Position numbers and translations under genes: made by a program. Below are positions 1,657-61,665 of a stretch of DNA of 64,000 bases, one piece after another. Origin of the DNA: a virus (Duplodnaviria; Caudoviricetes); IMG/VR virus record IMGVR_UViG_3300048930_000991, positions 1,414 to 65,413 of that record, one strand, 5' to 3'. The first letter of the stretch is position 1, and each line of letters opens with the position of its first letter. Under the pieces are notes generated by a model, which worked only from the letters and a program-made list of their open reading frames with translations, did no database searches and was not told the origin of the DNA.

Positions 1657-3249
1657 GTGCGAAGGGGACGTACCGTGGTCGATGCAGCAGCAACCGGCGC
1701 AGGGGGAGGACTCGATCAGACACCCCCACGCACCAGGGCTGCCGAGTACGTGCGGATGTCCACCGACCATCAGCGCTACTCGACCGAGAACCAGGCGGAT
1801 GAGATCCGCGAGTACGCGGCGCGGAACGGCATCGAGATCGTTCGCACATATGCCGATCACGGCAAGAGCGGGCTGAGCATCGCGGGGCGTGACGCGATGA
1901 AGCAAATGCTCGCCGATGTTGAGGCCGGGCAGGCCGACTTCACCCTGATCCTCGTGTACGACGTCAGCCGCTGGGGGCGTTTCCAGGACACGGACGAAAG
2001 TGCCTACTACGAGTACAAGTGCAAGAAGGCCGGGGTCCGCGTGATCTACTGCGCGGAGCCATTCGAGAATGATGGCAGCATCGCTTCCGAGCTCCTGAAG
2101 AGCATCAAGCGTACCATGTCAGGGGAGTACAGTCGGCAACTCGGGAACAAGGTGTTCAAGGGTCAGTGCCGCCTCATCGAGTTGGGCTTTCGGCAGGGCG
2201 GCTCGGCGGGCTTCGGGCTGCGCCGATTCCTGATCGATGGCGCCGGAGCGCCGAAGGGCGAACTCACTCGCGGCCAACACAAGAGCATCCAGACCGACCG
2301 CGTCGTACTGACGCTCGGGCCTATCGATGAGGTCGAGACCGTCCGCTGGATCTACTGCAGCTTCGTGGAGGACGGCCAGAACGAGGAGGCGATCGCGCGC
2401 CTGCTGAACGAGCGCGGGATCCTGAACGATGTCGGCAACCCCTGGTCTCGAGGGAATGTCCACCAAGTCCTGATCAACGAGAAATACGTCGGCGACAATG
2501 TGTGGAATCGCGTCTCAGCGAAACTCACTGAGCGACGGCGCAAGAACACGCCCGATGAGTGGATCCGGCGCGATGGCGCCTTTCCTGCCGCGGTGGACCG
2601 GCTGCTCTTCGATGCGGCGCAGGTCATCATCCAGGAACGCTCGCGCAAGCTCACGGACGACGACATGCTGGAAGCCCTTCGTCGGGTGCTCGCGACGCAT
2701 GGGCGTCTAACCGGAATCCTGATCGACGAGGCCGATGACACGCCGTCGAGCAGCGCTTACGCGCAGCGCTTCAAGAGCCTGCTGAGGGCGTACCAGCTGA
2801 TTGGCTACACGCCAGAGCGCGATTTCGCCTTTCTGGATGCCAATCGCGCGGTGCGTGAGATGCATCCATCCGTGATGGCGGGGGTCATGGCCGGCCTGGA
2901 GCGTGCGGGGGGCACGGTTGTGCGCGATCCCGAAACCGACCTACTCACGATCAATGACGAGTTCACGGCGGCCGTTGTGATCTCGCGATGTCGGGTGGCT
3001 GCAAGCGGAATGCGGCGCTGGCTCATCCGGTTGGATGAGGGCCTCACCCCAGACATCACGGTGGCCGTTCGGCTGGAGCCGGGCGAGACGACGACGCTCG
3101 ATTACTACCTGCTGCCCTGGATCGACCTGCAGCTTGCGTCGCTGCGCCTGCGGCAGGCCAACGGCTTCGGCCTGGACGCCTTCCGGTTCGACACGCTGGA
3201 GCCGTTCTTCGACCTGGCAGCACGGGCTCCGATCAGGGGAGTGGGATGA
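1657..3249 (+). CDS. Large serine recombinase (resolvase + recombinase domains)
   Basis: AAEYVRMST catalytic Ser motif, YDVSRWGR motif, recombinase-domain LINEKYVG. Confidence 0.92.
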   Translation: MRRGRTVVDAAATGAGGGLDQTPPRTRAAEYVRMSTDHQRYSTENQADEIREYAARNGIEIVRTYADHGKSGLSIAGRDAMKQMLADVEAGQADFTLILVYDVSRWGRFQDTDESAYYEYKCKKAGVRVIYCAEPFENDGSIASELLKSIKRTMSGEYSRQLGNKVFKGQCRLIELGFRQGGSAGFGLRRFLIDGAGAPKGELTRGQHKSIQTDRVVLTLGPIDEVETVRWIYCSFVEDGQNEEAIARLLNERGILNDVGNPWSRGNVHQVLINEKYVGDNVWNRVSAKLTERRRKNTPDEWIRRDGAFPAAVDRLLFDAAQVIIQERSRKLTDDDMLEALRRVLATHGRLTGILIDEADDTPSSSAYAQRFKSLLRAYQLIGYTPERDFAFLDANRAVREMHPSVMAGVMAGLERAGGTVVRDPETDLLTINDEFTAAVVISRCRVAASGMRRWLIRLDEGLTPDITVAVRLEPGETTTLDYYLLPWIDLQLASLRLRQANGFGLDAFRFDTLEPFFDLAARAPIRGVG

Positions 3250-4142
3250 TGACCGAGCGAGACACCAGGAGCGAGGCGCAGGCCATCCCTGTCGACCTCA
3301 TTCACATCTCCAACCCGCGGGCACGTAGCCCTCGCGCCTTCGACGAACTCGTCGCCAGCATCGCCTCAGTCGGTCTGAAGCGGCCGATCACAGTCGCGGC
3401 GCGGTCCTCCACCGAGGGGAGTCGGTATGACCTCGTCTGCGGCCAAGGGCGTCTCGAAGCCTTCAGAGAGTTGGGCCAGACGACAATTCCGGCGGTGATT
3501 GTCGAGGCCGACCCGGAGCAGCTGCAAATCATGAGCCTGGTGGAGAACCTGGCACGGCGCCAACACCATGCCCTTGACCTTCTCCATGACATCCAGGGCA
3601 TGCGCGAGCGCGGGCATTCCGAAGCCGACATCGCCCGGAAGACAGGATTAACCGGGGAGTATGTTCGCGGCGTCCTCCGCCTGATCACGAAAAGCGAGAC
3701 GCGCCTGCTCACCGCGGTGGAGAAGGGAACCATCCCTGTCAGCATCGCCGTCGATATTGCCCTGGCCGCCGATACCGATACCCAACGCGTGCTGCAGGAA
3801 GCCTACGAGAAGAACTTGCTGCGCGGCCACAAGCTCATGGCCGCCAAGCGCCTCGTTGAGCAGCGTCGCAGGAAGCGAGGTTACGAAGGAGAGCGCGATC
3901 GCGGGGCACGCGCACGCCCACTGTCGCTCAACGCGCTGGTACGAACCTACCAGCAGGACACCGAAAAGAAGCGCCTTCTCGTTCGCCGAGCCCAGGCGAC
4001 GCGCGATCGGCTTGTCTTCGTCCTTGAGGCGCTCCGCGCCCTCATGGCTGACGCAAGCTTCGCCGGGCTGCTTGCGGCTGAGCGCATCGACACCTTGCCA
4101 CGCAGCCTGAGCGAGCGCCTCCGTGCGCGGGAGGGCGCATGA
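3246..4142 (+). CDS. ParB/RepB/Spo0J-family protein
   Basis: SIASVGLKRPITV, LVCGQGRL and SLVENLAR ParB-N motifs followed by an HTH; overlaps the recombinase stop. Confidence 0.88.
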   Translation: MMTERDTRSEAQAIPVDLIHISNPRARSPRAFDELVASIASVGLKRPITVAARSSTEGSRYDLVCGQGRLEAFRELGQTTIPAVIVEADPEQLQIMSLVENLARRQHHALDLLHDIQGMRERGHSEADIARKTGLTGEYVRGVLRLITKSETRLLTAVEKGTIPVSIAVDIALAADTDTQRVLQEAYEKNLLRGHKLMAAKRLVEQRRRKRGYEGERDRGARARPLSLNALVRTYQQDTEKKRLLVRRAQATRDRLVFVLEALRALMADASFAGLLAAERIDTLPRSLSERLRAREGA

Positions 4143-11092: not shown

Positions 11093-13267
11093 CTACCCCC
11101 GCACCGTGTCGTAGGCCGCCCCGCCGCGGCGGATGGCATCCAGCGTCATCGCCGAGGCCTGCCGCGCAATCTGCCCGGCGAGCAGCCGCAGCCGCGCCTC
11201 GACGCCGGCATCGGCGCCGCGGGCGTCAATGCTGATGCTGGTGTGGATGGTCGGGCCGCCGCCGCCCGGGGCGACACCATTCGGCAGCACCGTCCCCGCC
11301 TGGCGCGGCACAAACCATTCGGGGCCCCGTTCGCCCACGACATAGGGCTGGCCGGCGGCGACCGGCCCGCCCTCGGCACGGAACAGCCCGCCGAGCCAGG
11401 AGCCGACATCGGTGAACAGGCTGTCGAAGGAGATCCCGGAGAGCCCGGCCGAGACGGCATTGCCCAGCGGCTCGGTGATGACCTTGCGGGCAAGGATGCG
11501 GGTGATGTCCTGGAGCAGGCCCTCCAGCACGGAGGAGAACTTCTCGCCCTTGACGATCGCGTCCTCGAAGGCGCTGGAGAAGGTCAGGCCAAGCTCCCGC
11601 ACGACGTCGGAGGTGCGTTCCGCGCCGCGCTGCACACGCTCCTCCGCCCGCTCCAGCTCCTCCATCGCCGCGACCGCCTCGCGCTGGATGGTCTCGTCAG
11701 GCACCGCCCGGCCGGCCCGTTCAGCCCGCTCCACCAGGGTGGAGAGATTGGCGAGGCGGCGCTGGTAGCGCTCATGGGCGGTCTCGTTCTGCTGGATCAG
11801 CCGCTCGCGCTCGCGCAGCAACTCGTTCAGCTCCCGCTCGGCCTCGCGCGCCTCCCGCGCGCCCTCGTTGCTGGCACGGCGGACGGCGGCGACACGCGGC
11901 TCCAGGCGGCGCAGCGCCTCGTCGCGCTCCTGCAGGGCGAGCGTCTCGAGGCGGGTGCGCTCGACCGCGGTGACGCCACCCGCAGCCTCCGCCTCGCGCA
12001 GGCGGCGGACCCGCTCCTCGTATTCCCGGTTGATCCGGAAGCGGTCGTCGAGGTCGCGGCTGAGCTCCTGGACGTCCTGCGTCGCCCGGCGCCGACGGGC
12101 GTCGGCGGCCTGGGCGGCGGCACTCTCCTGCTCCGTCCGCTGACGCTCCCCGGCGGCCTGCTCGCCGCGAGTGATCTCGGCCTGGAGGTCCGTGTATTGC
12201 CGGCGCAACTCCTCCAGCCGGGCGGCGCGATCCACCCCGGCCTGCTGCTCGGCGGTACCGACCAGGCCAGGACGGATGCTGCCGCGCCGCACTGGGGCGG
12301 TGAGGCTGGCGCGGCCGTCCTGCTGGCTTTCCAGCCGGGCGATCTGCGCCGCCAGCGCCTCGGCCTGGCGGCGCATGCCGGCGAAGCGTTCCTCCTCGCT
12401 GAGCAGGCCCGCACCCTGGCGGACGCCGTCCACCGCGCGGGCGGCAGCCGAGAGCGCTCGGGCCAGCGCATTGGAGAGGCCGATGGCGCGATCGAGCTGG
12501 CCCAGAAAATTCTCGGTCGCCGCGGTCAGCTGCCCGAAGGCGCGGCCGAGGGAGAGCGGCGCACGGTCGAGCTCGGCGCCGAGCCGCTCGGCCGCGCGCA
12601 GCAGGGCCGGAAAGACCCGCTCGGCGGTGAGCTTGCCCTCGCTGCCAAGCTTGCGGAGCTCGCCGATGGAGACGCCGAGTTCCTTGGCCAGCCCCTCGGC
12701 CAGCAGCGGCATGGCCTCGAGGATGGAGCGCAGCTCGTCGCCCTGCAGCACGCCCGACGCGAGTGCCTGGGCGAGCTGCAGCGTAGCCGAGGAGATCTCC
12801 TGCGTGGATGCGCCGGAGACGATGGCGACGCGCTGCAGGCCGCCGACGAGGCGGACCACCTGGTCGGAGGTGGCGCCGATCTCGCGGGCGGCGATCGAGA
12901 AGCGCTGGAAGGCGTCGACACTCTCGGAGACCGCGACGCCGGTGGACAGTGCATTGTGGTACAGCGCCTCGTAGACTTGGCCGGCGCGCTCGACCGAGCC
13001 GGTGGCGTTCTGCAGGCGCGAGAGGCTCTGGGTGAGCGCGTCGCCGGCCTGGACCAGGGCACGGGCCGCCACCGCCACGCCGGCGAGCTGGATCCCCCGC
13101 ACGGCGACGTCGAGCAGGTCGAGCGAGCGCGAAGCGCGTTCGGCGCCGCCCGTGATCTGGTCGAGCGAGCGCTGGCCGGTCTCGCCGACCTCGCGCAGGC
13201 CAGCCTTGACCCGGGCGGCATCGTCCAGCGACAGGCGGACCGAGACGCGGCGGGTGGCGTCGGCCAT
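11093..13267 (-). CDS. Tape measure protein
   Basis: LQLAQALASGVLQGDELRSILE tape-measure motif, long coiled coil, C-terminal GGPV..G.PYVVGERGPE. Confidence 0.93.
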   Translation of the reverse strand: MADATRRVSVRLSLDDAARVKAGLREVGETGQRSLDQITGGAERASRSLDLLDVAVRGIQLAGVAVAARALVQAGDALTQSLSRLQNATGSVERAGQVYEALYHNALSTGVAVSESVDAFQRFSIAAREIGATSDQVVRLVGGLQRVAIVSGASTQEISSATLQLAQALASGVLQGDELRSILEAMPLLAEGLAKELGVSIGELRKLGSEGKLTAERVFPALLRAAERLGAELDRAPLSLGRAFGQLTAATENFLGQLDRAIGLSNALARALSAAARAVDGVRQGAGLLSEEERFAGMRRQAEALAAQIARLESQQDGRASLTAPVRRGSIRPGLVGTAEQQAGVDRAARLEELRRQYTDLQAEITRGEQAAGERQRTEQESAAAQAADARRRRATQDVQELSRDLDDRFRINREYEERVRRLREAEAAGGVTAVERTRLETLALQERDEALRRLEPRVAAVRRASNEGAREAREAERELNELLRERERLIQQNETAHERYQRRLANLSTLVERAERAGRAVPDETIQREAVAAMEELERAEERVQRGAERTSDVVRELGLTFSSAFEDAIVKGEKFSSVLEGLLQDITRILARKVITEPLGNAVSAGLSGISFDSLFTDVGSWLGGLFRAEGGPVAAGQPYVVGERGPEWFVPRQAGTVLPNGVAPGGGGPTIHTSISIDARGADAGVEARLRLLAGQIARQASAMTLDAIRRGGAAYDTVRG

Positions 13268-13268
13268 G

Positions 13269-13595
13269 TCAGGTCGTCTCCCCCTCGCGGCGGGCGGCAG
13301 CGCCCTCGGCCATGCCGCTGCGGATGGCGAGCAGCAGTTCGGCGGCGGCCCAGCCGGTGGCGCCCAGTTCCCGTGCCGCGGCGAGCGCGCCGGCGGTATC
13401 GAGCGTCAGGCCGGCCATGGTCGCCTCAGCGCAGGCCGTGCAGGCGGACCAGCAGGCATGGCCCTCGACGCTGCTGGGGGCATGGGCGGTGTAGGGGCAA
13501 GCGTCCGTGCAGTCGCGCTCGAAGGCGGCGCAGCCGCGGCAGTATTCGGGCCCGCGGCCAAAATGCCAGGCGGCGCGGACCCTTAGCCGTTTCCC
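13269..13595 (-). CDS. -1 frameshift extension of the tail assembly chaperone (gpGT-like)
   Basis: GGGAAAC slippery heptamer at 13595-13589; the -1 frame is open to TGA at 13271-13269, just before the TMP ATG. Confidence 0.75.
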   Translation of the reverse strand, partial: GKRLRVRAAWHFGRGPEYCRGCAAFERDCTDACPYTAHAPSSVEGHACWSACTACAEATMAGLTLDTAGALAAARELGATGWAAAELLLAIRSGMAEGAAARREGETT

Positions 13596-13960
13596 TCGGC
13601 GGCCACCGCGGCGACCGGGGCGGTGGCGCGGTCCCAGAAGGCGGCCGCGATGTCGTCGAGGTCCATCAGGCGTTCGACCGCCTCGGGCGAGAGCGGCAGC
13701 GGCTTGCCCGCGGCATCACCGACGCCCTCCCAGCCAGTGACGGCGTGCCGCGCCAGCGCCTTGACGAGGAAGGCGAAGGAGAGGCCGCGCGACATGTCAG
13801 GGTCGAGGTCCGGATCGGCGAGGCGGATCGCGGCGAGACGGCGCGCGGCGGCGGCCTGCGCCGCGGCCATGACGGCGGTCGTCACCGGCCGGATCTCGAC
13901 GCGCACGCCGCGCGGCAGGTCGAGCCAGTACGGCTCGGCCGGGAGGTCGAGTGTGAGCAT
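13583..13960 (-). CDS. Tail assembly chaperone (gpG-like)
   Basis: GGAG RBS before ATG 13960; VTGWEGV motif; sits upstream of the TMP. Confidence 0.8.
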   Translation of the reverse strand: MLTLDLPAEPYWLDLPRGVRVEIRPVTTAVMAAAQAAAARRLAAIRLADPDLDPDMSRGLSFAFLVKALARHAVTGWEGVGDAAGKPLPLSPEAVERLMDLDDIAAAFWDRATAPVAAVAAEGNG

Positions 13961-14256
13961 TTGCAACTCCGTCGTTGAGGCAGGATCCGCAGGCGCCTTG
14001 CGGCACTGCGGCATGACGCTTGGGCGATGATCGGCCTCGGCCAGGGGAGCCGACGCGTGGAGCGAACCGCCAGGTCTGCCCCTCAGCGGTCCGTTACCTA
14101 CGGCCCATCAAGGTCTCGTTTCAGGCGCTGGTGGACATGCCTGCTGGGACTAGAGGATCAACGGCCATACGCCCATCTCAGCCACTCCAGATCCAGGTGG
14201 CTCTGACCAAAAGCGGCCGTGCTGCTGCTAAGGCGACAGGAGGTCGCAGCGCTTCG

Positions 14257-16683
14257 CTATGCAGCGACAAGCGACCTTTCCTCATGGTAGCTGTAGCGCC
14301 GCGAGAGACACCGTGTATCCTGCTGCGGCCCGCGCGTGAGCTCGAGCGTTAGTAGGCTGTCCGTCGGGAAAGCGGGGCTGAGTTCGAGGCGGAGATACTC
14401 GAACAGTTGACGATCGTGCACCGCGATAACCACCTGACGCTTGTGTTCCTTCGAAAGGGTGCGCAACAGCGCGGCGAGATGCGCGATGTGGACGTCGTCC
14501 ATCGACTGCACCGGATCATCGAGGATTAGCCAAGGCAGCGTCCGGGGCACCGAGAGGTGTAGTGCGAGGAAGAGCGTCAGGGCGGCAGTGTTGAGATTGC
14601 CGGCGCTGAGCATGGCGCCGGGCGTGCCTCCGACAGCGCCGCCGTCGCGGTGATCGGTGACGAGCCGAGGCTGGATCCGCTGGGTGCCCGCAGCAGGTAT
14701 ACGGAACGCGGGGATAAACGGCTCTCCGGGCGCCAGCCGGACGAAGAGGTCGCGCCATAGACGATTGAGGCGCTCGTTGAACTCCCTTCGGATTATGCCG
14801 GAGCGGATGGTGTCCACGGCGTCCCGGATCTTCGTGCCCTGCGCCCTGACCTTCTGAGCACGCTTCTGCGCGTCGTTCACCTTCTTGAGCGCCTGTTCGT
14901 TCTCGCCGAGGCCCTCGGAAATGCTGTCGCTCCGAGCCTGCAGGGTTCTGATCGTCGCCACGGCTTCCCGTCCCCTGCGACGTGCGGCGAGCCTGTCCTC
15001 CAGCCGCCTTAATTCAGTGTCGAGGAGAAGCTGAATTCTTGCACCGGCTCCCACCGGATCCTCTCCGTCCGCCACCGGGTCTCCCGCGACGGTCCGAGCG
15101 AAATCCGACAACGTCTGCCTTGCTGCGGTCAGGGCGACACTACGGGACTGCGCCTCGGTCACCGCTCGCCTAGCCACCACTTCGGCGGTGCGCAAGCGAG
15201 CCCCTTCCCTCAGCGTGTCAATCATGTTTGCGAGTTCCGTCCGGGCCGCATGCAGGTCGGCTACGGCGCGATCGAGACCAGCAAGCGTTCGGTCATCTAG
15301 CACCGCCTGTTCCAGCGCCGCGATCTCTCGATCAAGCCGGTCTACCTGCGTCTGGGCTTCTGTCCTGGTACGTCCGAGCGCGAGAAGCCGCTGAGCCGAT
15401 GACGATAGGCTCCGGACCTTGGCATGGACGTGCTCGACGAGGTTGCCGTCATGAACCTCCGCATAGTCGCGGTCGCACACCGGGCAGGTGTCTCCATCTA
15501 TGAACGACGTAAGTTCCGAGAGGATGGAACCCAGACCGCCCGATGAGGCCGGAATATCAGCCATTTCGGCATCGATCGTCTTCACTCGGGACCGCGCGAC
15601 TTCGACCTCTCCCTGCGCAGTCCCAAGTCGCTCGGCGTCAGTCTTGGCCTTGGTGCTCCGGGCCGACGCGTGCTCGCTTCGCACGGCCAGCTGTCGCAAC
15701 GCCGCGTCCGAGAACGCCGCCATGTCGCCCGGCAGGGATATATCCGAGAGCAGCGCCTCGATGCGTGCCCTGAGCGCCAAGTAGCGTTCCCCGTTCGCCG
15801 CCTCCCAGTGGCCGTAGGCGCCGGGCGCCGCAGCGGTGGGATCGGCTATTGATCCAGCGGCCGGCTGGGCCTTCGCCGCCTCCGCGATCTCGCGGCGGAT
15901 CGATGCCAGCTGGCGTCGGTGATCGGTGATCGACGCGAGCGCTTGTTCGTCCTCGTCCGGCCTGAGTTCCGCCTCGATCGCGCCGAGCGTGCGGTCGTCG
16001 AGTTCCAACGACAGATCGAGCGCAGCGGCTGCACTTCGGATCGTCACCATCTGGTGGCCGATATCCTTGGTGACCTGGAGCAGGCTGGTCCTCTGATCCT
16101 CGATCAGGGCATCGATCCGCGTCTTCTCTAACTCGTTGTCGGACCACCCATCGACGATCTTGCGAACGTTGCGGACGTCTCCAAGCGGCTTGAGGCCGGA
16201 CTCGATGGCATCGAGGCGGTCGAGACGAAGGAGCTCGCCCACGAACCGCGCGAGCGGCGAGTCCGCGCCGCTGCCGGAATCCTGGTAGATCTGCAGCAGC
16301 TGACCGAGCAGCGCCTGCGGAAGGTAGCTCCGCTCGCTGAAGAAGGTGGTGAGAGGCCCGTCCAGCGGGATGGCCGACGTTACCCCCTCTGCCGACAGCG
16401 TCGCGCGGTACAGCGCCGAGGTGTTGCCTATCGTCGTCTTCACCGCCACGCTGCCCTGTGCGGCCGAGCGGTGCATGAGCTGCGTGGCAAAGTCGGGATC
16501 CGCACGCCGCAGCGACTGCACGCTTCCGGTCAGCGCCAGTTCGATAGCAAAGAGAAGGCTCGTCTTGCCGGCACCGTTCTCGCCGTGGATGAGTACGACC
16601 TGGGCATCGAGCGGGGCGTGCACGTGTCCACGGATGCTGCGGAAGTCGACGACGTCGAGTTCTTTGAGAAGAAGGTCGGTCAC
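14257..16683 (-). CDS. Rad50/SbcC/SMC-like ABC ATPase (LmuB-like)
   Basis: Walker A GENGAGKT, Q-loop YLPQ, coiled coils with CPVC zinc hook, LSAG signature, Walker B ILDDP, H-loop AVHD. Confidence 0.9.
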   Translation of the reverse strand: MTDLLLKELDVVDFRSIRGHVHAPLDAQVVLIHGENGAGKTSLLFAIELALTGSVQSLRRADPDFATQLMHRSAAQGSVAVKTTIGNTSALYRATLSAEGVTSAIPLDGPLTTFFSERSYLPQALLGQLLQIYQDSGSGADSPLARFVGELLRLDRLDAIESGLKPLGDVRNVRKIVDGWSDNELEKTRIDALIEDQRTSLLQVTKDIGHQMVTIRSAAAALDLSLELDDRTLGAIEAELRPDEDEQALASITDHRRQLASIRREIAEAAKAQPAAGSIADPTAAAPGAYGHWEAANGERYLALRARIEALLSDISLPGDMAAFSDAALRQLAVRSEHASARSTKAKTDAERLGTAQGEVEVARSRVKTIDAEMADIPASSGGLGSILSELTSFIDGDTCPVCDRDYAEVHDGNLVEHVHAKVRSLSSSAQRLLALGRTRTEAQTQVDRLDREIAALEQAVLDDRTLAGLDRAVADLHAARTELANMIDTLREGARLRTAEVVARRAVTEAQSRSVALTAARQTLSDFARTVAGDPVADGEDPVGAGARIQLLLDTELRRLEDRLAARRRGREAVATIRTLQARSDSISEGLGENEQALKKVNDAQKRAQKVRAQGTKIRDAVDTIRSGIIRREFNERLNRLWRDLFVRLAPGEPFIPAFRIPAAGTQRIQPRLVTDHRDGGAVGGTPGAMLSAGNLNTAALTLFLALHLSVPRTLPWLILDDPVQSMDDVHIAHLAALLRTLSKEHKRQVVIAVHDRQLFEYLRLELSPAFPTDSLLTLELTRGPQQDTRCLSRRYSYHEERSLVAA

Positions 16684-17291
16684 GCTTTCTCCTCCTTATC
16701 CCGTAAAGCGGCATCGATCAGTCGGGCGATCGCGGTGGTCACGGCCTCCTCGCCGTGCTCCGCCGCCGCCATGATCGCCTCGATGGTACCGCTGTCCACA
16801 GTATTCGCCAGCGCAGCCCGCAGCTGTTCCTGCGCCGATCCGGCTTGGTCCTCCGGACCCGACTGCGGGATCGAGAGTGGCAACAGCACCCGGATGCTAT
16901 CTTCCAGCCGGCGGAGGTCCGGCGTGCCGTCGTCACAGAGGGGAAGCGTGTCGACGTGCAGGACGCGGGCCGTTTCTGCGAGCGATTCCATGTCGCTCGA
17001 GAGCGCAGCGCCGGCCAGCACCACGGTCAGGACATATCTGGATGCGGTTACATCGAGAGCACGGCTCATCGCTTGAACGCGGTGACGGACGCGAGCGCCG
17101 TCGCTGTCTCCGAAGTCTCCTGCCGTTGTGTCGATCAAAAGTACAAGATCCAGCGCGCGCCCGCGCCTGCCACGCAGCGCTCCCGTGAACTGGAACTCGA
17201 CGCCGGCGATCCTGAATGGAGTCGGAAGATCGTCATACTCAGCCTCGTGGAGGCGCTGCCTTATTGCGGCTATCAGCGGGGAGTCGATCAT
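16680..17291 (-). CDS. ABC three-component middle protein (LmuC/MC-like)
   Basis: 203 aa alpha/beta protein overlapping both neighbours by 4 nt, between the SIR2 effector and the SMC ATPase. Confidence 0.65.
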   Translation of the reverse strand: MIDSPLIAAIRQRLHEAEYDDLPTPFRIAGVEFQFTGALRGRRGRALDLVLLIDTTAGDFGDSDGARVRHRVQAMSRALDVTASRYVLTVVLAGAALSSDMESLAETARVLHVDTLPLCDDGTPDLRRLEDSIRVLLPLSIPQSGPEDQAGSAQEQLRAALANTVDSGTIEAIMAAAEHGEEAVTTAIARLIDAALRDKEEKA

Positions 17292-19042
17292 AGCAGCACC
17301 TCCGCCACGAACGTCGCGCGCAGCCCATCGATGTCGCCGGATACGCGCAGCATCTCGCCGACGCTGACATGGGATGGCTCCAGCGTTCCCGTCCTACCAG
17401 GTGCGCTGCCGGGCGACCTGCCTGATCGAACCGCCATCGTTCGATGCCACGTGTCGTCCGAATGAATCACGAGGGCGTTGTCGTTTGCGTACGCTCCATC
17501 CGACTGGAGACGGATTGCCTCCGACACCGACTTCACGAGGAAGACGGGACGGATCGGCGCGCCGGGACGATCGGCCTGAAGCGATGCCACGCCAGCGGTC
17601 AGCTCATCACCGGTCGGCGGCTTGACGGACCATTTGCCTGAAGATCGACCATGCTCCAGTAGGGCCAACGTGACGGCGAGATGGCCGAGGTTCGAGCTTC
17701 GGGCGTTCTGATCGGCGGCTAGAATCGCGGCAGTCGACTGGCTGACTTGCTCGTATGCGGTGGGATCACGCTGAAGGGTACCGCCGCGGAAGACCGACAG
17801 AAGTCGCGACCAGTATGCGATTCCCTGGTTCACCGCGGGCGTACGGTCTTCGGCGACGGCGTCGACGGTCGCGCCAGCAGCGAAGAGGTCACGCAGATCG
17901 TTCAGCGATTCAGTCAGCTCGGCGCAGAGCGCGGCCTTGCCGATGGCCGCTAGCGCGAGTTCCATGAGGCAGGCTAGCTTGTCGGTTATTGTCTTGAGCA
18001 CCAACGCGATCAAGACCTGTTCGCCCCAGGCCCGCATGTGACAGGCACGGTGTATGTCGACAATGTTGCCGTTGTAGGCGCCACCGTAGACCAGGCGCAG
18101 GACATCGACCTGCCCCTGCTTGATCTCGTCCTCGCAGAAGACGTGTCCCGGGGCGTCCGGTTCGCAAGGCCATGGCCAGGGATTTATGGCCGTTGCCTCG
18201 GTGAAGACGGCCTGAAGGTTCATGTCCTGGATCGACAGGCCTAGCACCAGCGACTTCTTGTTCGTTGCCACGTCGCGGACCGCGTTCCGCATCGCCGCGA
18301 AGTCCTGATTGTAGGGCCACCTGCCTATTTGCGTGTGACTACCGGTAAGGAATCGTCGATATTTTGCCTCGTCCTGCTGCGCATGCTCGACGCACCCGTG
18401 GAATTTGAGCAGCGTGGCCTTGCCAGGCGGATCGCGAAGCTGACCAGGATCGACGACGATCTGCAGCAGTCCGGGCACGCTGCCGCCGAGACGCCGGACG
18501 GCGGCCTCGATGAAGCCGTCCCAGTTCGCGGAGGCGATCGTCTGAACCGCGCCCTCAAGCACCAGGATCGCGATGCACAGGTGCGCGGCTGCCGGCGGGG
18601 CCGGGTGCGCGAACTGCCGTCGGATGTCAATCGCGTTCCAAAGGATGAAGTCTGAAGGCTCGTCCGGAATGCGGATATCAAGGATACGGGAGTAGCTGTT
18701 CCAGAGCGTGTCGACGATCTGCTTGCGGAGCGCCCATTCGTCGAACGGCCGGTGCAGGTCGGATCCGATCGTGGCGCGATCCAGACCAGCAAACCTGAGT
18801 GCCTCGTCCAGCGCCGGCAGGTAATCCGCGGCAATCGCCGGATTTGAGGTGCATGCCCGAATATACTCCATCGCTGCAGCGATCAGCCCGCCAAGGCTTG
18901 GCGCCCGTCTCGAGATGCCGGAGCCGATCCACAGCGCGAACTCGCCGTTCTCGACCGCCTTCGCGGTCGATGCGAATTCCCCGTCGAGCTTCGCCAGTAC
19001 CTGGCGCACAGTTATGTCAGTCGCGCTGGGCACAAGACCCAC
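17288..19042 (-). CDS. SIR2-family (SIR2_2) NADase-like effector with C-terminal domain (LmuA-like)
   Basis: ALWIGSGIS, ASANWD, LLKFHG and LVLGLSIQD are SIR2_2 motifs. Confidence 0.85.
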   Translation of the reverse strand: MGLVPSATDITVRQVLAKLDGEFASTAKAVENGEFALWIGSGISRRAPSLGGLIAAAMEYIRACTSNPAIAADYLPALDEALRFAGLDRATIGSDLHRPFDEWALRKQIVDTLWNSYSRILDIRIPDEPSDFILWNAIDIRRQFAHPAPPAAAHLCIAILVLEGAVQTIASANWDGFIEAAVRRLGGSVPGLLQIVVDPGQLRDPPGKATLLKFHGCVEHAQQDEAKYRRFLTGSHTQIGRWPYNQDFAAMRNAVRDVATNKKSLVLGLSIQDMNLQAVFTEATAINPWPWPCEPDAPGHVFCEDEIKQGQVDVLRLVYGGAYNGNIVDIHRACHMRAWGEQVLIALVLKTITDKLACLMELALAAIGKAALCAELTESLNDLRDLFAAGATVDAVAEDRTPAVNQGIAYWSRLLSVFRGGTLQRDPTAYEQVSQSTAAILAADQNARSSNLGHLAVTLALLEHGRSSGKWSVKPPTGDELTAGVASLQADRPGAPIRPVFLVKSVSEAIRLQSDGAYANDNALVIHSDDTWHRTMAVRSGRSPGSAPGRTGTLEPSHVSVGEMLRVSGDIDGLRATFVAEVLL

Positions 19043-19275
19043 GGTATGCCTCCCCGATCGGCATGACGTGCGTCACCCGTAACCGCTGAAAGGCTATGTA
19101 CATTCCAGTAGCAAGGCAACGGGATGTCGCAAACCGCGAACTGCTGACGGCCTCGCTGGCCGGAGCCCGGCGGTTTTGCTCAGCCGCTGCGGATAGAGGT
19201 TGGAGTGGAAATCTACATGCCCGGCCCTATACAGCCACTTTCGCCCAAGGCAGCCCTCAGACATCGCGATAGCCG

Positions 19276-20232
19276 TCACGCATACTCGGTCCCGGCTTGC
19301 TGGTTCTTGAGCACCGCCGTCATCATTCGGGTGGCGGTCGCGTTGTAGGCGGCCCGGAACTCGAACGCCGCCTCGACGCCGCCCGGCCCTTCGACCGGCG
19401 TCTTCGCCAGCGCCAAATAGACCTCGTGCAGCGTGAAGGTCAGGCTGCGGTTGGCGTCGATCGTGTAGCTGAAGGCGAACTCTGCAGCGGCGTTGTTCTG
19501 CGCCTGCGTCAGCAGCGTGGTGTCCGCGAAACGCGCGGTGATCTGCCCGGTGGCGCGCGCGATGCCGGGATCCACGCCCTCGACCTTCCGGTCGGCGCGG
19601 ATGGTGCGCACCATCTCCATGCCGTTGGCGTAGGTGAGCCGTGCCCCGGTCACCTGCGCGAGCGCCGAGCCGTTCCGACTGATCGTCCCCTGCGCCTTGT
19701 GGAAGGCCGTGTAGGCGGCGCTGGTCGGCGTGCCGCCTGAACTCGAGGCGCCGCGCGTCGAGCCCTGCCCCATCAGCCCGAAGGTCGCGGTGGCGGGCCC
19801 GGTCGGCGAGAAGTCGATCTCCAGCGTGTCGGCGCGCACCCCGGTGCAGAGATCGTAGTTCGGCACGTCCGGATAGCCGATCTCGACGCTGTTCGAGGGC
19901 AGCGCCGCGGCGCCCGAGCCGAAGCTGTGGATGAAGTTTGGGCTGGTGCCGGTGGTGGCAGGCGGGCCGAGCAACAGGCGCAGCCAGTGCCCTATGTTGA
20001 TCAGGTCCACCGGCACCACCGCCTGGCCCTGCACGGTGACGGTATCGAGGAAGGGTGCCGCCGGATCGCGGCTGCTGCCGACGCCGATGACGTCGGCATC
20101 GAGCAACGGCTGCTCGGCACCGAGGTCGCAGGAGAGGAAGGGCATACGCAGCCAGTCGCCCGCGGGCGCGGTGCCGTAGGTCGCCTCGGGGATCATGAGC
20201 AGACGGCAATTGGCGCCGATGGCACGGGGCAT
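19276..20232 (-). CDS. Tail tube protein
   Basis: E.TYGTAP N-terminus, beta-rich; position after the tail terminator. Confidence 0.85.
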   Translation of the reverse strand: MPRAIGANCRLLMIPEATYGTAPAGDWLRMPFLSCDLGAEQPLLDADVIGVGSSRDPAAPFLDTVTVQGQAVVPVDLINIGHWLRLLLGPPATTGTSPNFIHSFGSGAAALPSNSVEIGYPDVPNYDLCTGVRADTLEIDFSPTGPATATFGLMGQGSTRGASSSGGTPTSAAYTAFHKAQGTISRNGSALAQVTGARLTYANGMEMVRTIRADRKVEGVDPGIARATGQITARFADTTLLTQAQNNAAAEFAFSYTIDANRSLTFTLHEVYLALAKTPVEGPGGVEAAFEFRAAYNATATRMMTAVLKNQQAGTEYA

Positions 20233-20266
20233 CGGAGGTCTCCGGGATCAGCGGGAGGAAGAGGCG

Positions 20267-20713
20267 TCAGGCCAGCGGCGAGCCGGCGACGGTGAAGAAC
20301 AGCGTGACGGGGACCGACGCAGCGCGCGCGGCGGCAGCGCCCTCGAACTCGACATCCTCGAAGTCAGGCGCACCGGGCTGTGCCCACTCCACCGCGCCGC
20401 CGAGCGTGCGGTCAGCGGTGATGGCGGCAGCGAGGTCCACCAGCAGCGCGTCGAGCAGCACGGCACGGGCCGCCGGCGTCGCCCCGGCCACGGTGACTTC
20501 GACCTCGGCGCGATGCTCGATGGCCCAGGCGAGCGGCGACAGGATCGCCGTCTCCTCCACGGTCTCGCCGTCGCGGATGACGACCAGCCCGCCCGGCGGC
20601 AGACGCTGCGGCACGGTCTCGCCGCGCAGCACCAGCGGGGCGGGATTGCGGGTGGCAAGCGCGGTCTGCAGCCGGCCATGCAGCGCCGCGATGGCGGCCT
20701 CGCGCATGCTCAC
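20267..20713 (-). CDS. Tail terminator / tail completion protein
   Basis: REAAIAAL...ADRTLGGAV motif; GTG 20713 overlaps the upstream stop. Confidence 0.7.
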   Translation of the reverse strand: MSMREAAIAALHGRLQTALATRNPAPLVLRGETVPQRLPPGGLVVIRDGETVEETAILSPLAWAIEHRAEVEVTVAGATPAARAVLLDALLVDLAAAITADRTLGGAVEWAQPGAPDFEDVEFEGAAAARAASVPVTLFFTVAGSPLA

Positions 20714-21438
20714 GGCGCCGCCCTCCCGCTCTCGCGCTCCCAGGCCGCCACGAAGCGCCCCGGCAGCCGACGCAGGCCGCGCTCGGCGGCGCCCTTCACG
20801 TCCAGCCGTTTGGCCAGTTTCACCTGCGGCAGCAGCAGGAACATCGGCACCATGCCGCGGGCGAGCATGCCGCGCGCCCAGGCCTCGCGACCCTTGCGGT
20901 TGCCGGTGCCGATCTCGGCGAGGCCGCCGGCGACGAGGCGGGTGCGACGACGCCGGCCGGCCTGCTCGCCCTGGCGCAGCGGCAGGCACCACACGAAGCC
21001 CCGGTTGGACTTGAAGGGGCGCAGGAATGCCTGCCCGGAGGCGACCATCTGCGCCGGGGTAACGCGCATCCCCTTCTCGCCGCGTCCCCGGCGCCCGCGC
21101 GCCGCGTTGAAGCCGGTCGGGATGGCGAGGAACTTCCGCCCGCCTTTCGCCCGGATCAGTGCACCGCGCTCGAAGGCGTCGATCACGTTCGGCACCTTGG
21201 TCCAGACAAGGCCGGCGGGGCGGAGCGACTGCCCCGCGCGGGGAAACACCTGAGACCGCCAGGCATTGGCGATCCCCCGCGCATTGCCGCCGAAGCTGCT
21301 GGTCACCTGCCGCCGCAGCTCCGCCTTGACCTGCTCCGTCTCGGCGCGGATCGCCGTCATCGCCGCACGCTCGCCGGCCCGCACCTCGGCCGCGAGCACC
21401 TGCCGCAGGTCGCCGACGATGCGGGTGCCGACCCTCAC
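20710..21438 (-). CDS. Neck/tail completion protein (DUF6441-like)
   Basis: Basic protein with LAIPT and PMFLLLPQVKL; position between head-closure and terminator genes. Confidence 0.7.
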   Translation of the reverse strand: MRVGTRIVGDLRQVLAAEVRAGERAAMTAIRAETEQVKAELRRQVTSSFGGNARGIANAWRSQVFPRAGQSLRPAGLVWTKVPNVIDAFERGALIRAKGGRKFLAIPTGFNAARGRRGRGEKGMRVTPAQMVASGQAFLRPFKSNRGFVWCLPLRQGEQAGRRRRTRLVAGGLAEIGTGNRKGREAWARGMLARGMVPMFLLLPQVKLAKRLDVKGAAERGLRRLPGRFVAAWERESGRAAP

Positions 21439-21755
21439 GATCCGCCGCCGCCGGGCGGCAGGCCGGTGCGATGGCGGATGATGGCGACGGCGAGGTCATG
21501 CAGCGCCGCCTGGCCGAGGTAGCCGAACACGAAGGCGAACAGGAACCGGCCATACTCGTTGAACTCGAGGAAGCCGCCGAGCGCGTAGCCGGCGCTGCCG
21601 ACCAGGGCGGCGGAGGGAACCTCCCAGGCCAGGCACCAGCCGAAGCGCCGGCGCTCCGGGTTGTTCCAGCGCACGAACCCGCCGGCGAGGCCGGCCACGG
21701 CGCCGAGCAGCAGGTCGCGCAGGATCTCCAACAGGGTGAGAGCATTCTGCGGCAT
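21435..21755 (-). CDS. Holin-like membrane protein
   Basis: 106 aa with about three hydrophobic segments and a GYLG motif; AGGAG RBS upstream. Confidence 0.6.
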   Translation of the reverse strand: MPQNALTLLEILRDLLLGAVAGLAGGFVRWNNPERRRFGWCLAWEVPSAALVGSAGYALGGFLEFNEYGRFLFAFVFGYLGQAALHDLAVAIIRHRTGLPPGGGGS

Positions 21756-21768
21756 GGGGTGGGGGCTC

Positions 21769-22077
21769 CTATCGCTGGCAGAGCACGCGCCAGGCGGTGC
21801 CCGAGGCGTCGCGCTCGGCATGGGTGACGGTGAGCAGGTCGGCGCCGAGGGCGAAGGTGTCGCCGGCGGCGAGGCCGGGGAGGACGGCGATGGCGACCGA
21901 GAGGATGTCGGTGGCCGAGAGGATCTCGGTGCCGAAGGCATCGGCCACGCGGTCTGGCGAGGAGCGCAGCACCCTGACCGCAATGGGCGCGCCGGTGCCG
22001 CCCTGTCGGTAGACAGCGTCGGCCCCGAGGTTCGGATCGGCGACCAGGGCCGCCATAGCATCGACGAAGGCGTTCAT
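21769..22077 (-). CDS. Head-tail joining / head closure protein
   Basis: 102 aa, AVY...V and GDTF...W motifs typical of head-closure proteins. Confidence 0.7.
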   Translation of the reverse strand: MNAFVDAMAALVADPNLGADAVYRQGGTGAPIAVRVLRSSPDRVADAFGTEILSATDILSVAIAVLPGLAAGDTFALGADLLTVTHAERDASGTAWRVLCQR

Positions 22078-33467: not shown

Positions 33468-34712
33468 TCACCCGGGTTGCCGGCCACGCGCCTCGGCGAT
33501 GTCGTCGAAGGTGCGATCTTCGGCATCGAGCACAGCCGTCCCGCCCGTCGACTCCTGCCAGCGACGCACGATCACATCGGCGTAGGCGGGGTCGATCTCC
33601 AGCAGCACGGCGCGCCGCCCAGTCCGCTCCGCCGCGATCATCGTCGTGCCGGAGCCGCCGAACGGATCCAGCACCGTGTCGCGCTGCTTGCTGCTGTTGC
33701 GGATCGCCCGCTCCACCAGCGCGACGGGCTTCATCGTCGGGTGAAGGTCGTTCCTGGCCGGCTTGTCGAAATGCCAGACGTTCCCCTGGTCGCGGGCGCC
33801 ACACCAGTAATGCTGCGCGCCGGCCTTCCAGCCATAGAGCATCGCCTCGAATTGCTGGTGGTAGTCGGCGCGGCCGAGCGCGAAGGTGTTCTTCGCCCAG
33901 ATGATCGTGCTCGACCACTTCCCGCCGGCCTCCTGCCAGGCGCGGTGCAGCGTCGGCCATTCCGACGACGACATGCAGACGTAGCAGGCGCCCTTCGTCA
34001 CCGAGAGCAGGTTGGCCAGCGCCGGGCGGAGGAAGTCCAGGAAGCCCTGGCCCAGCGCGTCGTTGGCGATGGTCATCCTGGCCGCGGTGCCGCCCTGGTA
34101 GGCGACGTTGTAGGGCGGATCCGTGAGGGCCATGTCGGCCAGCCGATCAGCGCCGAGGGCGCGCTGCACGTCGTCGAGCTTCGTGGCGTCGCCGCAAAGC
34201 AGGCGGTGGTCGCCGCAGCGCCAGAGGTCGCCGGTGCGCGTGACGGGAGTGACCGGCAGTGGCGGCGCCTCGTCGGCATCATCCGCAAGGCCGGCATCGG
34301 CAGCTGCCAGCAGCCGGTCCAACTCCATGCCGGAGAAGCCCAGCAAGTCCAGGTCGACCACCGCCTCGCCGCGGATCCGCGCAATCTCGGTGGCCAGCAG
34401 CGCCTCGTCCCACCCGGAGTTCAGCGCGATCTGGTTGTCGGCCAGCCGCAGCGCCCGCGCCTGCGCCTTGGTCAGGTGCGCGAGTCGGATCGCCGGCACC
34501 GCCGCCATACCAAGGCGCTTCGCGGCCATCACACGGCCATGGCCCGCGACCAGCACGCCAGCGGCATCCACGAGGACCGGGTTCACGAAGCCGAACTCGG
34601 CGATGGAGGCGGCGATCTGCGCCAGCTGGTCCTCGGAATGCGTTCGCGCGTTCTCCGCGTATGGAACCAGCGCGGCGACGGGGATGGTGGCGACCGCGAG
34701 ATCAGGCAGCAT
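33468..34712 (-). CDS. ParB-N domain + beta-class DNA methyltransferase (DPPY)
   Basis: NARTHS...AGHGR ParB-N; TDPPY; HPTMKP; LDPFGGSGTT. Confidence 0.92.
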   Translation of the reverse strand: MLPDLAVATIPVAALVPYAENARTHSEDQLAQIAASIAEFGFVNPVLVDAAGVLVAGHGRVMAAKRLGMAAVPAIRLAHLTKAQARALRLADNQIALNSGWDEALLATEIARIRGEAVVDLDLLGFSGMELDRLLAAADAGLADDADEAPPLPVTPVTRTGDLWRCGDHRLLCGDATKLDDVQRALGADRLADMALTDPPYNVAYQGGTAARMTIANDALGQGFLDFLRPALANLLSVTKGACYVCMSSSEWPTLHRAWQEAGGKWSSTIIWAKNTFALGRADYHQQFEAMLYGWKAGAQHYWCGARDQGNVWHFDKPARNDLHPTMKPVALVERAIRNSSKQRDTVLDPFGGSGTTMIAAERTGRRAVLLEIDPAYADVIVRRWQESTGGTAVLDAEDRTFDDIAEARGRQPG

Positions 34713-36171
34713 CGACCAACGCCTCCGCCCGCTCTGCAGCCACGGCATCGTAACCTCGGCCGTCGCCATCCAGCGTGACGTTCAGCTCGGGGAACAGCAT
34801 GCGGTAGCGAGCGATGGCGAGATCGACATAGGTCGGCGCGAGCTCGATCGCCCAGACCTTCCGCCCCGTGCGCTGTCCGGCGAGAATGGTGGTGCCGGAG
34901 CCCGCGAAGGGCTCGAAAACGGCATCGCCGAGATTGGCGTAGGCCTGCACGAGCAGCTCTGGCAGCGCGACGGGGAACACCGCCGGGTGCTCGGTCTCGA
35001 TGCCGCGGCCCTTGTGGCGGGTGATGCGCAGCACGCTGTCCGGGATGCGCATCTCCTGCACGGGCAGGCCGATATGGGTGTAGGCCTTCACCTCGCCGTC
35101 CGCCGCCCGTAGCCCGCTGCCCTTGTTCGGCGTGCCGGCCCATTTGCAGGGCACGATCTTGTTCGGGGCGCGGGCCTCGCGGTTGAAGTGAAACACCAGC
35201 TCGAAGGCGGGTGCGAGGCGGCCGTTCCAGTCGCCCGGCAGGCCGGGCCCCTGGTCCCAGGCGTAGAGCCCGAAGCGCCGCCAGCCTTGGGCGCGCATCC
35301 AGTCCAGCCAGCCCTGCCAATAGGGCTGCCACTCGCCCTCGCGGTGGATCAGGCCCAGGTTCACGAGCACCTGGCCATTCCCGGTGAGGACTGTTGGTAG
35401 ATGCTGGAACACGCCCTGCATCAGCGCGTCCCAATCCGAGACGCCGCCGGTGGTATAGGCGCGCTGGTTCCCGTACGGCGGGGAGGTGAAGAGCAGCGCC
35501 GCGCGGTCCGCGCCCATGACGCGGGCGACCGACGCGGCATCGGTGCTGTCGCCGCAGAGCAGGCGGTGCTCGCCGAGCAGCCAGAGGTCGCCGGGTCGGG
35601 TGACGGCCTGGCGCGGCGGGTTCGGCTCGGCGTCGGCGGGATCATCCTCCGCCGCTGCCTCATCCGTCCCCGCCGCGCCGTCCCCGCCCCCCTGGACCGC
35701 GGGCGCCGACAGGGCCTCGGGCGCATCGCCGTCGGACACGGCATTTCCAGCCGCCGCGAGGATGTCGTCGAGCTCCGCGGCCGAGAAGCCGAGCGCCGCC
35801 AAGTCGAGGTCAGGCGCCGTCTGCGCCGCGGCGAGCGCATCGCGCAGGAGCGCCTGGTCCCAGGTCGCGTTCTCCGCGATGCGGTTGTCAGCAAGCCGCA
35901 GCGCCTCCTTCTGCGCCGCGGACAGATGCCGCAGCACGATCGTCGGCACCTTCTCGATGTCGAGTGCGACGGCGGCCGCGAGCCGGCCATGGCCGGCGAT
36001 CAGCGCGCCGTCCTCGTCCACCAGCAGCGGGTTGGTGAAGCCGAAGGCCAGCATGCTGACCTTGATCTGCTCGATCTGCGCGGCGCCGTGCACGCGCGCA
36101 TTGCCGGGATGCGCACGCAGCTCCGCCACCGGGCGCAGCAGGATCTTCGCTGCCATCCAGGGGAGCGTCAT
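34702..36171 (-). CDS. ParB-N domain + beta-class DNA methyltransferase (SPPY)
   Basis: NARVH...AGHGR; FTSPPY; HPAVFP; FEPFAGSGTT; start re-called at ATG 36171. Confidence 0.92.
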   Translation of the reverse strand: MTLPWMAAKILLRPVAELRAHPGNARVHGAAQIEQIKVSMLAFGFTNPLLVDEDGALIAGHGRLAAAVALDIEKVPTIVLRHLSAAQKEALRLADNRIAENATWDQALLRDALAAAQTAPDLDLAALGFSAAELDDILAAAGNAVSDGDAPEALSAPAVQGGGDGAAGTDEAAAEDDPADAEPNPPRQAVTRPGDLWLLGEHRLLCGDSTDAASVARVMGADRAALLFTSPPYGNQRAYTTGGVSDWDALMQGVFQHLPTVLTGNGQVLVNLGLIHREGEWQPYWQGWLDWMRAQGWRRFGLYAWDQGPGLPGDWNGRLAPAFELVFHFNREARAPNKIVPCKWAGTPNKGSGLRAADGEVKAYTHIGLPVQEMRIPDSVLRITRHKGRGIETEHPAVFPVALPELLVQAYANLGDAVFEPFAGSGTTILAGQRTGRKVWAIELAPTYVDLAIARYRMLFPELNVTLDGDGRGYDAVAAERAEALVDAA

Positions 36172-36195
36172 CGGGCCATCCGGAATGAGGGTGGG

Positions 36196-36288
36196 TGCGA
36201 ACCGTGCGAACCGCGGCTGCGAACCGACGCGGCCATGGTTCGCAGCTAAGCGATTGAGATCAGGGCCGAAGGGTGCGAACTGCGAACC
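36196..36288. repeat. TGCGAAC repeat cluster (candidate cosB / TerS-binding sites)
   Basis: TGCGAAC at 36196, 36205, 36218, 36274 and 36281; inverted copy at 36238-36244. Confidence 0.6.
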
Positions 36289-36312
36289 ATTTTTCGGGCC
36301 AGGCGCTAGCGA

Positions 36313-36359
36313 TGTTGCGCGCTTCCGCCCCCCGCATACGCCTGGCCCAGGAAGGACCC
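36313..36359 (-). other. Candidate cos site (cosQ + cosN-like)
   Basis: Minus strand reads GGGTCCT (identical to lambda cosQ), then about 16 nt later TATGCGGGGGGCGGAAGCGCGCA (cosN-like partial dyad). Confidence 0.55.
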
Positions 36360-36525
36360 TGCGGCTCGTGAGCCACTGTCTCGATTGAGCGACGCTGTGG
36401 TTGGCGAGCCGCGGTGCAGACGGCTGCACCCGCAATTCATCATCGTGGGGAGAGTCTACGAGATGCGGATTCCGCTTCGCCAGCGGGTGAATTGTAACAG
36501 CGCGGAGCGGCCGTCGCGCGCTGTC

Positions 36526-55178: not shown

Positions 55179-55183
55179 CGATC

Positions 55184-58803: not shown

Positions 58804-58806
58804 CCC

Positions 58807-61554: not shown

Positions 61555-61665
61555 CGGTTAACGCTTCCCCACCCTGGTGATGAGCATCGCGTCGATTTAC
61601 TGTTTCATCTCGGGAACGTAGGCCAGAATATTGAGGGCCACCCGAATGGCGGCGGGAGAGCGAGT

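Follow-up and report, generated by a model that had tools for sequence, protein, structure and literature searches.

Lamassu, a group of ABC-3C systems, offers the closest described comparison for a three-gene cassette at positions 14257-19042 of the DNA analyzed here, a 64,000-nucleotide stretch (the window) of a tailed virus that covers positions 1,414 to 65,413 of the 65.4-kb IMG/VR record IMGVR_UViG_3300048930_000991, which is rated 90% complete. The ABC-3C classification, with the classes MC1-8 and CTD1-12, was reportedly set out by Krishnan and colleagues in 2020. According to the available text of later sources, Lamassu has been broadened to many effectors, SIR2 among them (Millman et al.), and has been split into a short and a long type, with Sir2 effectors in both (PMC12663957, PNAS 2025). 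In that text, short LmuB is a protein of ~600 amino acids whose Walker B motif ends in D[Q/S/T/E], and long LmuB is a protein of ~800 amino acids with a Walker B motif of the form hhhhDD and one CxxC (PMC12663957). Long LmuC is described there as having an extra short domain past an unstructured linker, and the C-terminal domain of long LmuA as being built from helices, a beta-sheet, and a conserved acidic loop (PMC12663957). Long LmuC is also described as structurally similar to SbcD/Mre11's C-terminal region, which serves in capping and Rad50 binding (PMC12663957; bioRxiv 10.1101/2025.03.14.643221), and the preprint text delimits a "Rad50/Mre11-like sub-family" with CTD1-5, an MC1 LmuC, and LmuB proteins of 800-1000 amino acids (bioRxiv 10.1101/2025.03.14.643221). 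The same text of PMC12663957 names a single validated long system, of the hydrolase-protease kind. We find that the cassette in the window is very likely a long-type Lamassu (ABC-3C) system with a Sir2 effector, carried as exchangeable cargo by a temperate lambda-like siphovirus in a hotspot exactly at the junction of its genes for the tail tube and the tail assembly chaperone.

The cassette consists of the following genes:

17288-19042, minus strand: SIR2 protein, the LmuA-like effector, 584 amino acids, with the SIR2 domain at residues ~1-335 and a C-terminal domain at ~340-584

16680-17291, minus strand: middle protein in the LmuC position, 203 amino acids, with an N-domain at residues 1-139, a disordered linker at ~140-152, and helices at 153-202

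14257-16683, minus strand: probable LmuB, a long-type Rad50/SbcC-like ABC ATPase with a zinc hook, 808 amino acids

An initial annotation, made from the letters of the DNA and its open reading frames, had described three co-oriented genes with 4-nucleotide overlaps between the tube and chaperone genes. The open reading frame list and translations agree with that description, and the same overlaps were present at both gene junctions in 13/13 relatives checked. The SIR2 gene has a GTG start codon with a GGGGAGG box 7 nucleotides upstream. Compared with relatives, all three frames are full length (1-584, 1-203, and 1-808), and the three genes are intact and translationally coupled.

The ATPase matched four PADLOC models of LmuB, with E-values of 1.9e-33 (PDLC03859), 2.7e-27, 1.5e-21, and 6.9e-21. 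Pfam SMC_N also matched (9e-16), spanning residues 6-762, and NCBIfam Rad50/SbcC models matched the hook region. When the protein was aligned to 14 relatives of 35-73% identity, the ATPase motifs were invariant in 14/14: Walker A (GxxGxGKTS), the Q-loop glutamine Q123, CPVC at 400-403, the LSAGN signature, LILDD at 719-723, and the H-loop histidine H756. Both aspartates of the Walker B motif LILDD, D722 and D723, are among these invariant positions, CPVC is the sole CxxC in the ATPase, and the relatives are 804-813 amino acids long. The marks of the long type that can be read from sequence, namely an LmuB of ~800 amino acids, a Walker B motif with DD, and a single CxxC, are all present. As a short-type control, we considered two other LmuB proteins from the same hotspot (676 and 634 amino acids), and these have FDE and LDT, in line with the rule for the short type.

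The SIR2_2 domain of the 584-residue protein was recognized by Pfam (1.4e-6). In the SIR2 fold, a glycine-rich loop, an Asn/Asp motif, and a histidine make up the NAD site. The corresponding motifs GSGIS (40-44), NWD (173-175), and KFHG (213-216), which had been picked out in the initial annotation together with CPVC, were likewise invariant in 14/14 aligned relatives. A structure search with the predicted model found that the fold of the SIR2 domain resembles those of ThsA, KomC, and DSR2, and the SIR2-type PADLOC matches of the effector were weak (PDC-S65, 1.2e-5; ThsA, 5.6e-3). From the retained motifs and the defense-type fold, we predict that the effector could hydrolyze nicotinamide adenine dinucleotide (NAD+). 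It shares the SIR2 fold and NAD-site motifs with the defense SIR2 NADases ThsA/Thoeris, KomC, DSR2, Avs5/SIR2-STAND, SIR2-HerA, and SPARSA, but its partners are a Rad50-like ATPase and a middle protein rather than SLOG, STAND, HerA, or Argonaute.

The extra C-terminal region of ~250 amino acids that had been ascribed to the SIR2 protein forms a separate domain at ~340-584 in the predicted model, with helices at 340-467 followed by strands at 471-560. Its one long loop (538-554) was modeled with low confidence, and no conserved acidic loop was identified there. In the fold search with the whole 584-residue model, the matches listed fell mostly on the SIR2 domain, and the C-terminal domain was barely probed; its scores in the ESM Atlas were at most 0.81.

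The 203-residue middle protein had no match in Pfam, PADLOC, or NCBIfam. Its relatives numbered 311 among 90%-identity clusters and 413 clusters at 50% identity, all of them unnamed or "hypothetical". The predicted model (predicted local distance difference test score of 80) has an alpha/beta N-domain at 1-139, a low-confidence linker at 142-149, and three C-terminal helices at 153-202. Structure searches assigned the N-domain a restriction-endonuclease-like, or PD-(D/E)XK, fold, and the nearest named clusters in the ESM Atlas were PD-(D/E)XK families as well (0.76-0.77), which we treat as a lead only. Among 104 family members, D80 and R109 are the sole invariant residues, and a (D/E)xK motif has not been retained. 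Judged from the model and this alignment, the N-domain is probably a degenerate, non-catalytic nuclease fold. We also predicted a complex in which the middle protein was combined with the effector's C-terminal domain and the two halves of the LmuB head, and the score of 0.77, compared with 0.65 when chain 3 was replaced, supports nothing either way.

Taken together, the LmuB hidden Markov model match, the long-type marks, the intact SIR2 site, and the defense-type SIR2 folds argue for a long-type Lamassu, and thereby bear out the proposal of the initial annotation that an effector, a middle protein, and an ABC ATPase in this order form such a system. The cassette shares with the published long Lamassu-Sir2 systems the gene order, an 808-residue zinc-hook LmuB, the Walker B DD, and the single CxxC. 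It also shares a two-domain middle protein with a linker, for which the comparison is with a verbal description, and an effector made of an N-terminal Sir2 domain followed by helices plus a beta-sheet, which matches the published description qualitatively; the likeness to the published long Sir2 clade is drawn from main-text descriptions. The cassette differs in that the LmuA and LmuC models of PADLOC of 2023 do not match its proteins, and in that the N-domain of its middle protein looks like a degenerate PD-(D/E)XK fold, and the published likeness to Mre11/SbcD was not recovered. On these comparisons, it appears to be a fresh example of the already described long Lamassu-Sir2 kind. The short type II systems solved by cryo-electron microscopy (Vibrio cholerae DdmABC and Salmonella LmuACB, with a Cap4 nuclease effector) are likewise three-gene systems, in which an SMC-like ATPase is accompanied by a small middle protein and by an effector that has a docking domain at its C terminus. 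Their LmuB, however, has ~600 amino acids and a D[Q/S/T/E] Walker B motif, their effector is a nuclease, and the window proteins resemble the solved chains only in generic Rad50/SMC heads.

Several results weigh against this assignment. None of the LmuA models of PADLOC v2.0.0 matched the SIR2 protein at E <= 0.1, and 0/104 members of the middle-protein family matched any PADLOC model at E <= 1e-3. In sequence searches against solved structures, neither the SIR2 protein nor the middle-protein profile had a match, and the ATPase matched generic Rad50/SMC/ABC heads and no solved Lamassu chain. The C-terminal domain of the effector was joined to SIR2 heads in 60/60 matches, in a search restricted to relatives sharing exact 5-residue words. 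The effector swapping that is typical of LmuA was thus not seen for this domain among the fairly close relatives that such a search reaches. In the available text of the literature, we found no experiment on this family or on any long Lamassu-Sir2, and the trigger, the NAD+ depletion, and the abortive outcome are attributed to the cassette by analogy.

These failures could instead mean that the cassette is a separate, undescribed defense system of an SMC-like ATPase and a SIR2 protein, which would share with Lamassu only the Rad50-like sensor and would have its own nuclease-fold adaptor and C-terminal domain. The failure of the LmuA and LmuC models fits this explanation, as does the extent of the best LmuB match, which covers only residues 230-764 and reaches 114 bits, whereas a bona fide short LmuB from this hotspot scores 361 bits. 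The restriction-endonuclease-like middle protein fits as well, as does the probability of 0.4% that hhalign of its family gave against Escherichia coli SbcD. No LmuC, SbcD, or Mre11 chain was among the matches listed in structure searches with its model, and a relation may nevertheless exist. Still, the gene order, protein sizes, Walker B DD, single hook, and two-domain middle protein all fit the published long Lamassu, and long Lamassu with Sir2 is already described in the text of PMC12663957. PADLOC-DB dates from 2023, before long Lamassu with Sir2 was described, and therefore the failure of its LmuA and LmuC models is not in itself a sign of a new subtype. The initial annotation had proposed a PADLOC check in which failure would indicate such a subtype; LmuB was found and LmuA and LmuC were not, and the proposed sign proved insufficient for this reason. 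We consider a separate system unlikely.

If the cassette is a long-type Lamassu, its three genes should be found together, as the initial annotation anticipated. A pattern scan of one genome per species, followed by tblastn for the three genes, yielded 44 loci, mostly in Alphaproteobacteria, with a few in Pseudomonas, Paraburkholderia, and other Pseudomonadota. The complete trio was present in the same order in 42 of these 44 bacterial loci, with protein identities of 33-80%. The exceptions were one contig-end truncation and one spurious 60-residue match, and in 2 of the 42 ordered loci LmuB is cut by the contig end. Because synteny holds in 42/44 loci, we conclude that at the sequence level the trio is a conserved module and not a chance arrangement. 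In blastn comparisons of the window with the closest bacterial copies, homology begins 40-80 base pairs (bp) ahead of the SIR2 start and ends at the LmuB stop, which delimits the mobile unit. The genes beside the trio vary between bacterial loci, and the 105 neighboring genes include Hachiman HamB (E = 0), CBASS E1-E2, DISARM DrmMII, Hma, and type II methyltransferases.

In the window, the cassette lies within a lambda-like morphogenesis module that spans 5.6-31 kb on the minus strand and contains:

19276-20232, minus strand: tail tube gene, bordering the hotspot upstream (PF18906 Phage_tube_2, 9e-53; phrog_290, 6.5e-53)

19043-19275, minus strand: non-coding leader of the cassette, 233 bp

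13961-14256, minus strand: non-coding stretch from the LmuB stop to the chaperone start, 296 bp, absent from the bacterial copies (blastn)

13583-13960, minus strand: tail assembly chaperone (G), the downstream border of the hotspot, with corrected start (phrog_313, 1.1e-16)

11093-13267, minus strand: tape measure protein (PF20155 TMP_3, 5.9e-51; phrog_339, 1.3e-64)

Within 5.6-31 kb, minus strand: terminase gpA and lambda-type portal

Within 5.6-31 kb, minus strand: fused protease-capsid gene, distal tail protein, and J-like fiber

We scanned IMG/VR with the tube protein, found at least 190 relatives, and examined 80 of them (82-97% identity). Both the tube and the chaperone gene were contained in 69 of the 80 loci, and the other 11 run off the contig before the chaperone. 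In most of the 80 loci, homology to the window breaks off at ~19276, and the tube stop codon located there is the exact left breakpoint of the hotspot. Homology resumes at 13960-13976 in nearly all of the 69. The conserved start of the chaperone is the ATG at 13960, preceded by GGAG, and not 14014; the homology of the 69 relatives begins at this ATG. With the start corrected in this way, the inserted segment is exactly 13961-19275 and the flanks are 233 and 296 bp long, in agreement with the 230-300 bp of non-coding flank given in the initial annotation. Only the last 40-80 bp of the leader (~19043-19122) are common to the bacterial trio copies (blastn, loci L002-L007). Near its end, the chaperone gene has a slippery GGGAAAC at 13595-13589 leading into a -1 frame that runs to ~13269, just ahead of the tape-measure start, and this frameshift is, as judged from the nucleotides, the usual G/GT arrangement.

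In 2 loci the borders were 0 or 8 bp apart, whereas the other 67 had 606-6991 bp between them. Thus 67/69 relatives carry cargo of 0.6-7 kb, and the 68 occupied sites, the window included, hold 53 distinct cargo types, of which that of the window is unique. The initial annotation had suspected an unusual hotspot here and had called for a survey of related phages; the survey revealed many alternative cargoes, known defense systems among them, and a stronger pattern than foreseen. It had also stated that the two flanking genes are normally adjacent. We found this in 11/12 distant prophages (tube 42-52% identical), where the chaperone start is no more than a few tens of bases from the end of the tube gene, and in 2/69 close relatives. 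Because adjacency prevails in the distant prophages, we conclude that it is the ground state and that this lineage turned the junction into an exchange site.

The cargo has a median G+C content of 0.64 (range 0.47-0.72) and contains 100 open reading frames of at least 140 amino acids, which fall into 86 clusters; by crude open reading frame calls, 41 share the strand of the tail operon and 59 are on the opposite one. Known defense families among them include a TIR-NLR with TPR (5e-27), IetS (4.6e-33), IetA (7.3e-83), short LmuB (2.5e-108), BilD (6.9e-172), HEC-06 (2.5e-78), PDC-S64, and "Orf5". The LmuA, LmuC, and LmuB models had two members each, and iSirtuin with nSTAND7, SIR2_2 with nSTAND5, NERD, and HATPase_c were also found. 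A short Lamassu set (LmuA, LmuC, LmuB) occurs as cargo at L111:10163-13594, and the genes for 362, 168, and 634 amino acids at L101:2997-6432 are probably a second one. No mutual BLASTP similarity (E <= 1e-3) was detected between these two sets and the window trio, and we therefore count three Lamassu lineages at one site. Cargo proteins of 1453 amino acids (L047:5761-10122, the same as L048:1049-5410) and 820 amino acids (L046:10163-12625) had no Pfam or PADLOC match at E <= 1e-5, and these are candidates for novel defense genes.

Metagenome data from two DNA runs (X3 and X5) were mapped over window positions 13400-20300. Summed contig depth was ~40-290 in most flank bins compared with 2-12 over the cassette, a 10-50-fold difference, and five metagenome contigs diverge from the window exactly at 13960. 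Many related phages with other cargo thus appear to coexist in the same samples. One X3 DNA contig joined 13951 to 19370 at the 90% threshold, and we did not rely on it because one of its sides is short. A second variable spot lies between the -1 extension of the chaperone and the tape-measure start (window 13268-13309). Five loci have an insert of ~1.3-2.8 kb there, with the break at 13309 and the resumption at 13268 in L049, L050, L056, and L076, and at 13288 and 13298, respectively, in L100. The position of this spot recalls the HK97 gp15 moron.

Defense hotspots of P2/P4 phages and satellites were reportedly described by Rousset and colleagues in 2022. The site in the window resembles those hotspots in having conserved flanking phage genes and many alternative cargoes, many of which are known defense systems. 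It differs in its location, the tube/chaperone junction of a tail morphogenesis operon. Morons within late operons are known from the available sources, as in JBD26 Tab and HK97 gp15, and a limited full-text literature search found no published defense hotspot at the tube/chaperone junction. A more far-reaching reading joins two claims: that the junction is a previously undescribed, sharply bounded defense exchange site with more than 50 cargoes, many without a known family, and that the window cassette is a Lamassu sub-lineage whose middle component, a degenerate PD-(D/E)XK domain with a helical tail, would be a DNA-binding or adaptor module unlike the solved LmuC. We regard this combination as possible but rather doubtful. 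The simplest explanation for cargo turnover would be that co-infecting relatives undergo homologous recombination through their conserved tube and chaperone genes.

The cassette could also be an inert passenger, acquired recently and silent or decaying in this phage. Its G+C content of 0.64 is below the 0.69-0.74 of the tube and tape-measure genes, and it is the sole phage copy found: an IMG/VR scan with middle-protein patterns matched 52 stretches, of which 0 were confirmed as relatives, and a relative of the trio was found in 0/80 related phage loci. Moreover, no recognizable promoter precedes it. A scan of 13400-20400 gave 1 promoter-like and 5 terminator-like sequences, compared with 0.7 and 2.7 in shuffles, which we read as no signal beyond the shuffled controls, and none of them insulates the cassette. 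Decay, however, is at odds with full-length frames, the retention of every catalytic motif, and the strong ribosome-binding site ahead of the first gene. In addition, parts of all three genes are covered by contigs, 90-99% alike, from two RNA libraries of a single study; this is weak evidence, since the contigs may stem from DNA in the libraries or from a relative. In the same two runs, neither the tube gene nor most of the chaperone gene was covered by a contig, which proves nothing. We consider an inert passenger very improbable.

Least credible of all, to the point of being nearly negligible, is a Rad50/SbcC-like repair or recombination module that serves phage replication or the processing of the phage's own DNA ends: the ATPase does resemble Rad50/SbcC, both around the hook and in its N-terminal head (hhalign against E. 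coli SbcC, probability 90% over 55 columns, Walker A region only), and the cassette is co-oriented within the late operon, but a SIR2 NADase-type protein stands in place of an Mre11/SbcD nuclease partner, almost every copy found lies next to defense genes in a bacterial genome, and the trio is dispensable for this type of phage because it is absent from the 80 related loci and the other IMG/VR contigs scanned.

For a long-type Lamassu with a Sir2 effector, a working model can be drawn by analogy with the solved short Lamassu complexes, as far as these are set out in the available text of the two sources (bioRxiv 10.1101/2025.03.14.643221; PMC12663957). In the resting state, a complex of the composition LmuA1-LmuB2-LmuC1, made up of two LmuB subunits, one middle protein, and the SIR2 protein through its C-terminal domain, would hold the effector inactive. 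Once DNA ends or abnormal replication structures from an invading phage or plasmid are bound and ATP is turned over, the effector would be released. The freed SIR2 protein would then oligomerize and hydrolyze NAD+. The infected lysogen would halt growth or die before the invader finishes its cycle, and sister lysogens, hence the prophage, would be protected.

With the cassette, the long Lamassu-Sir2 group would gain an intact example from a phage, with K40 (Walker A), C400 and C403 (hook), and N173 and H215 (SIR2) as targets for mutation. The site outweighs the cassette in importance: in the 69 loci assessed, dozens of cargoes alternate at exactly one junction, that of two tail genes that are essential and co-translated. 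Because known systems sit beside unknown genes there, the hotspot provides a ready list of candidate defense genes. It also lends itself to two questions: how transcription of the late operon copes with inserts on either strand, and how a prophage could live with an abortive-infection sensor of DNA ends through its own induction. The initial annotation had likewise suggested that late transcription would have to cross the cassette and that the phage may need a way to keep from triggering it itself.

In a megablast comparison with named phages, 11 kb of the window gave no match. The best tblastn match of the tube protein was 45% identical, to Synechococcus, Nostoc, and Rhodobacter phages. Among 401 genomes of one class, the tube protein had 23 matches, the best at 51% identity, and a tube gene of this kind was not found in three trio-carrying genomes. 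Between the head and tail genes, a 208-residue protein (21435-22061, minus strand) has a weak LydA-type holin domain (PF16083, 1e-6), an odd site for a holin. The early region (33468-36435, minus strand) contains two adjoining genes for DNA methyltransferases of the N6_N4_Mtase family, one of which carries ParB as its N-terminal domain, and they may be self-protection or anti-restriction genes. At the left end, past the tail fiber genes, 1657-4142 (plus strand) holds a second serine recombinase and a ParB/RepB-like gene, and this end of the record may hold another mobile element or host flank. A large serine recombinase is encoded at 50166-51566, and beyond it, within 52059-62583 (plus strand), lie genes for a DUF499 protein (1039 amino acids), a PLD-SNF2 helicase (915 amino acids), and an Mrr endonuclease, which probably form a defense island at the prophage edge. 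Next to the trio, Sphingomonas loci L003-L005 have relatives of the PLD-SNF2 helicase, and L016 and L018 have relatives of Mrr.

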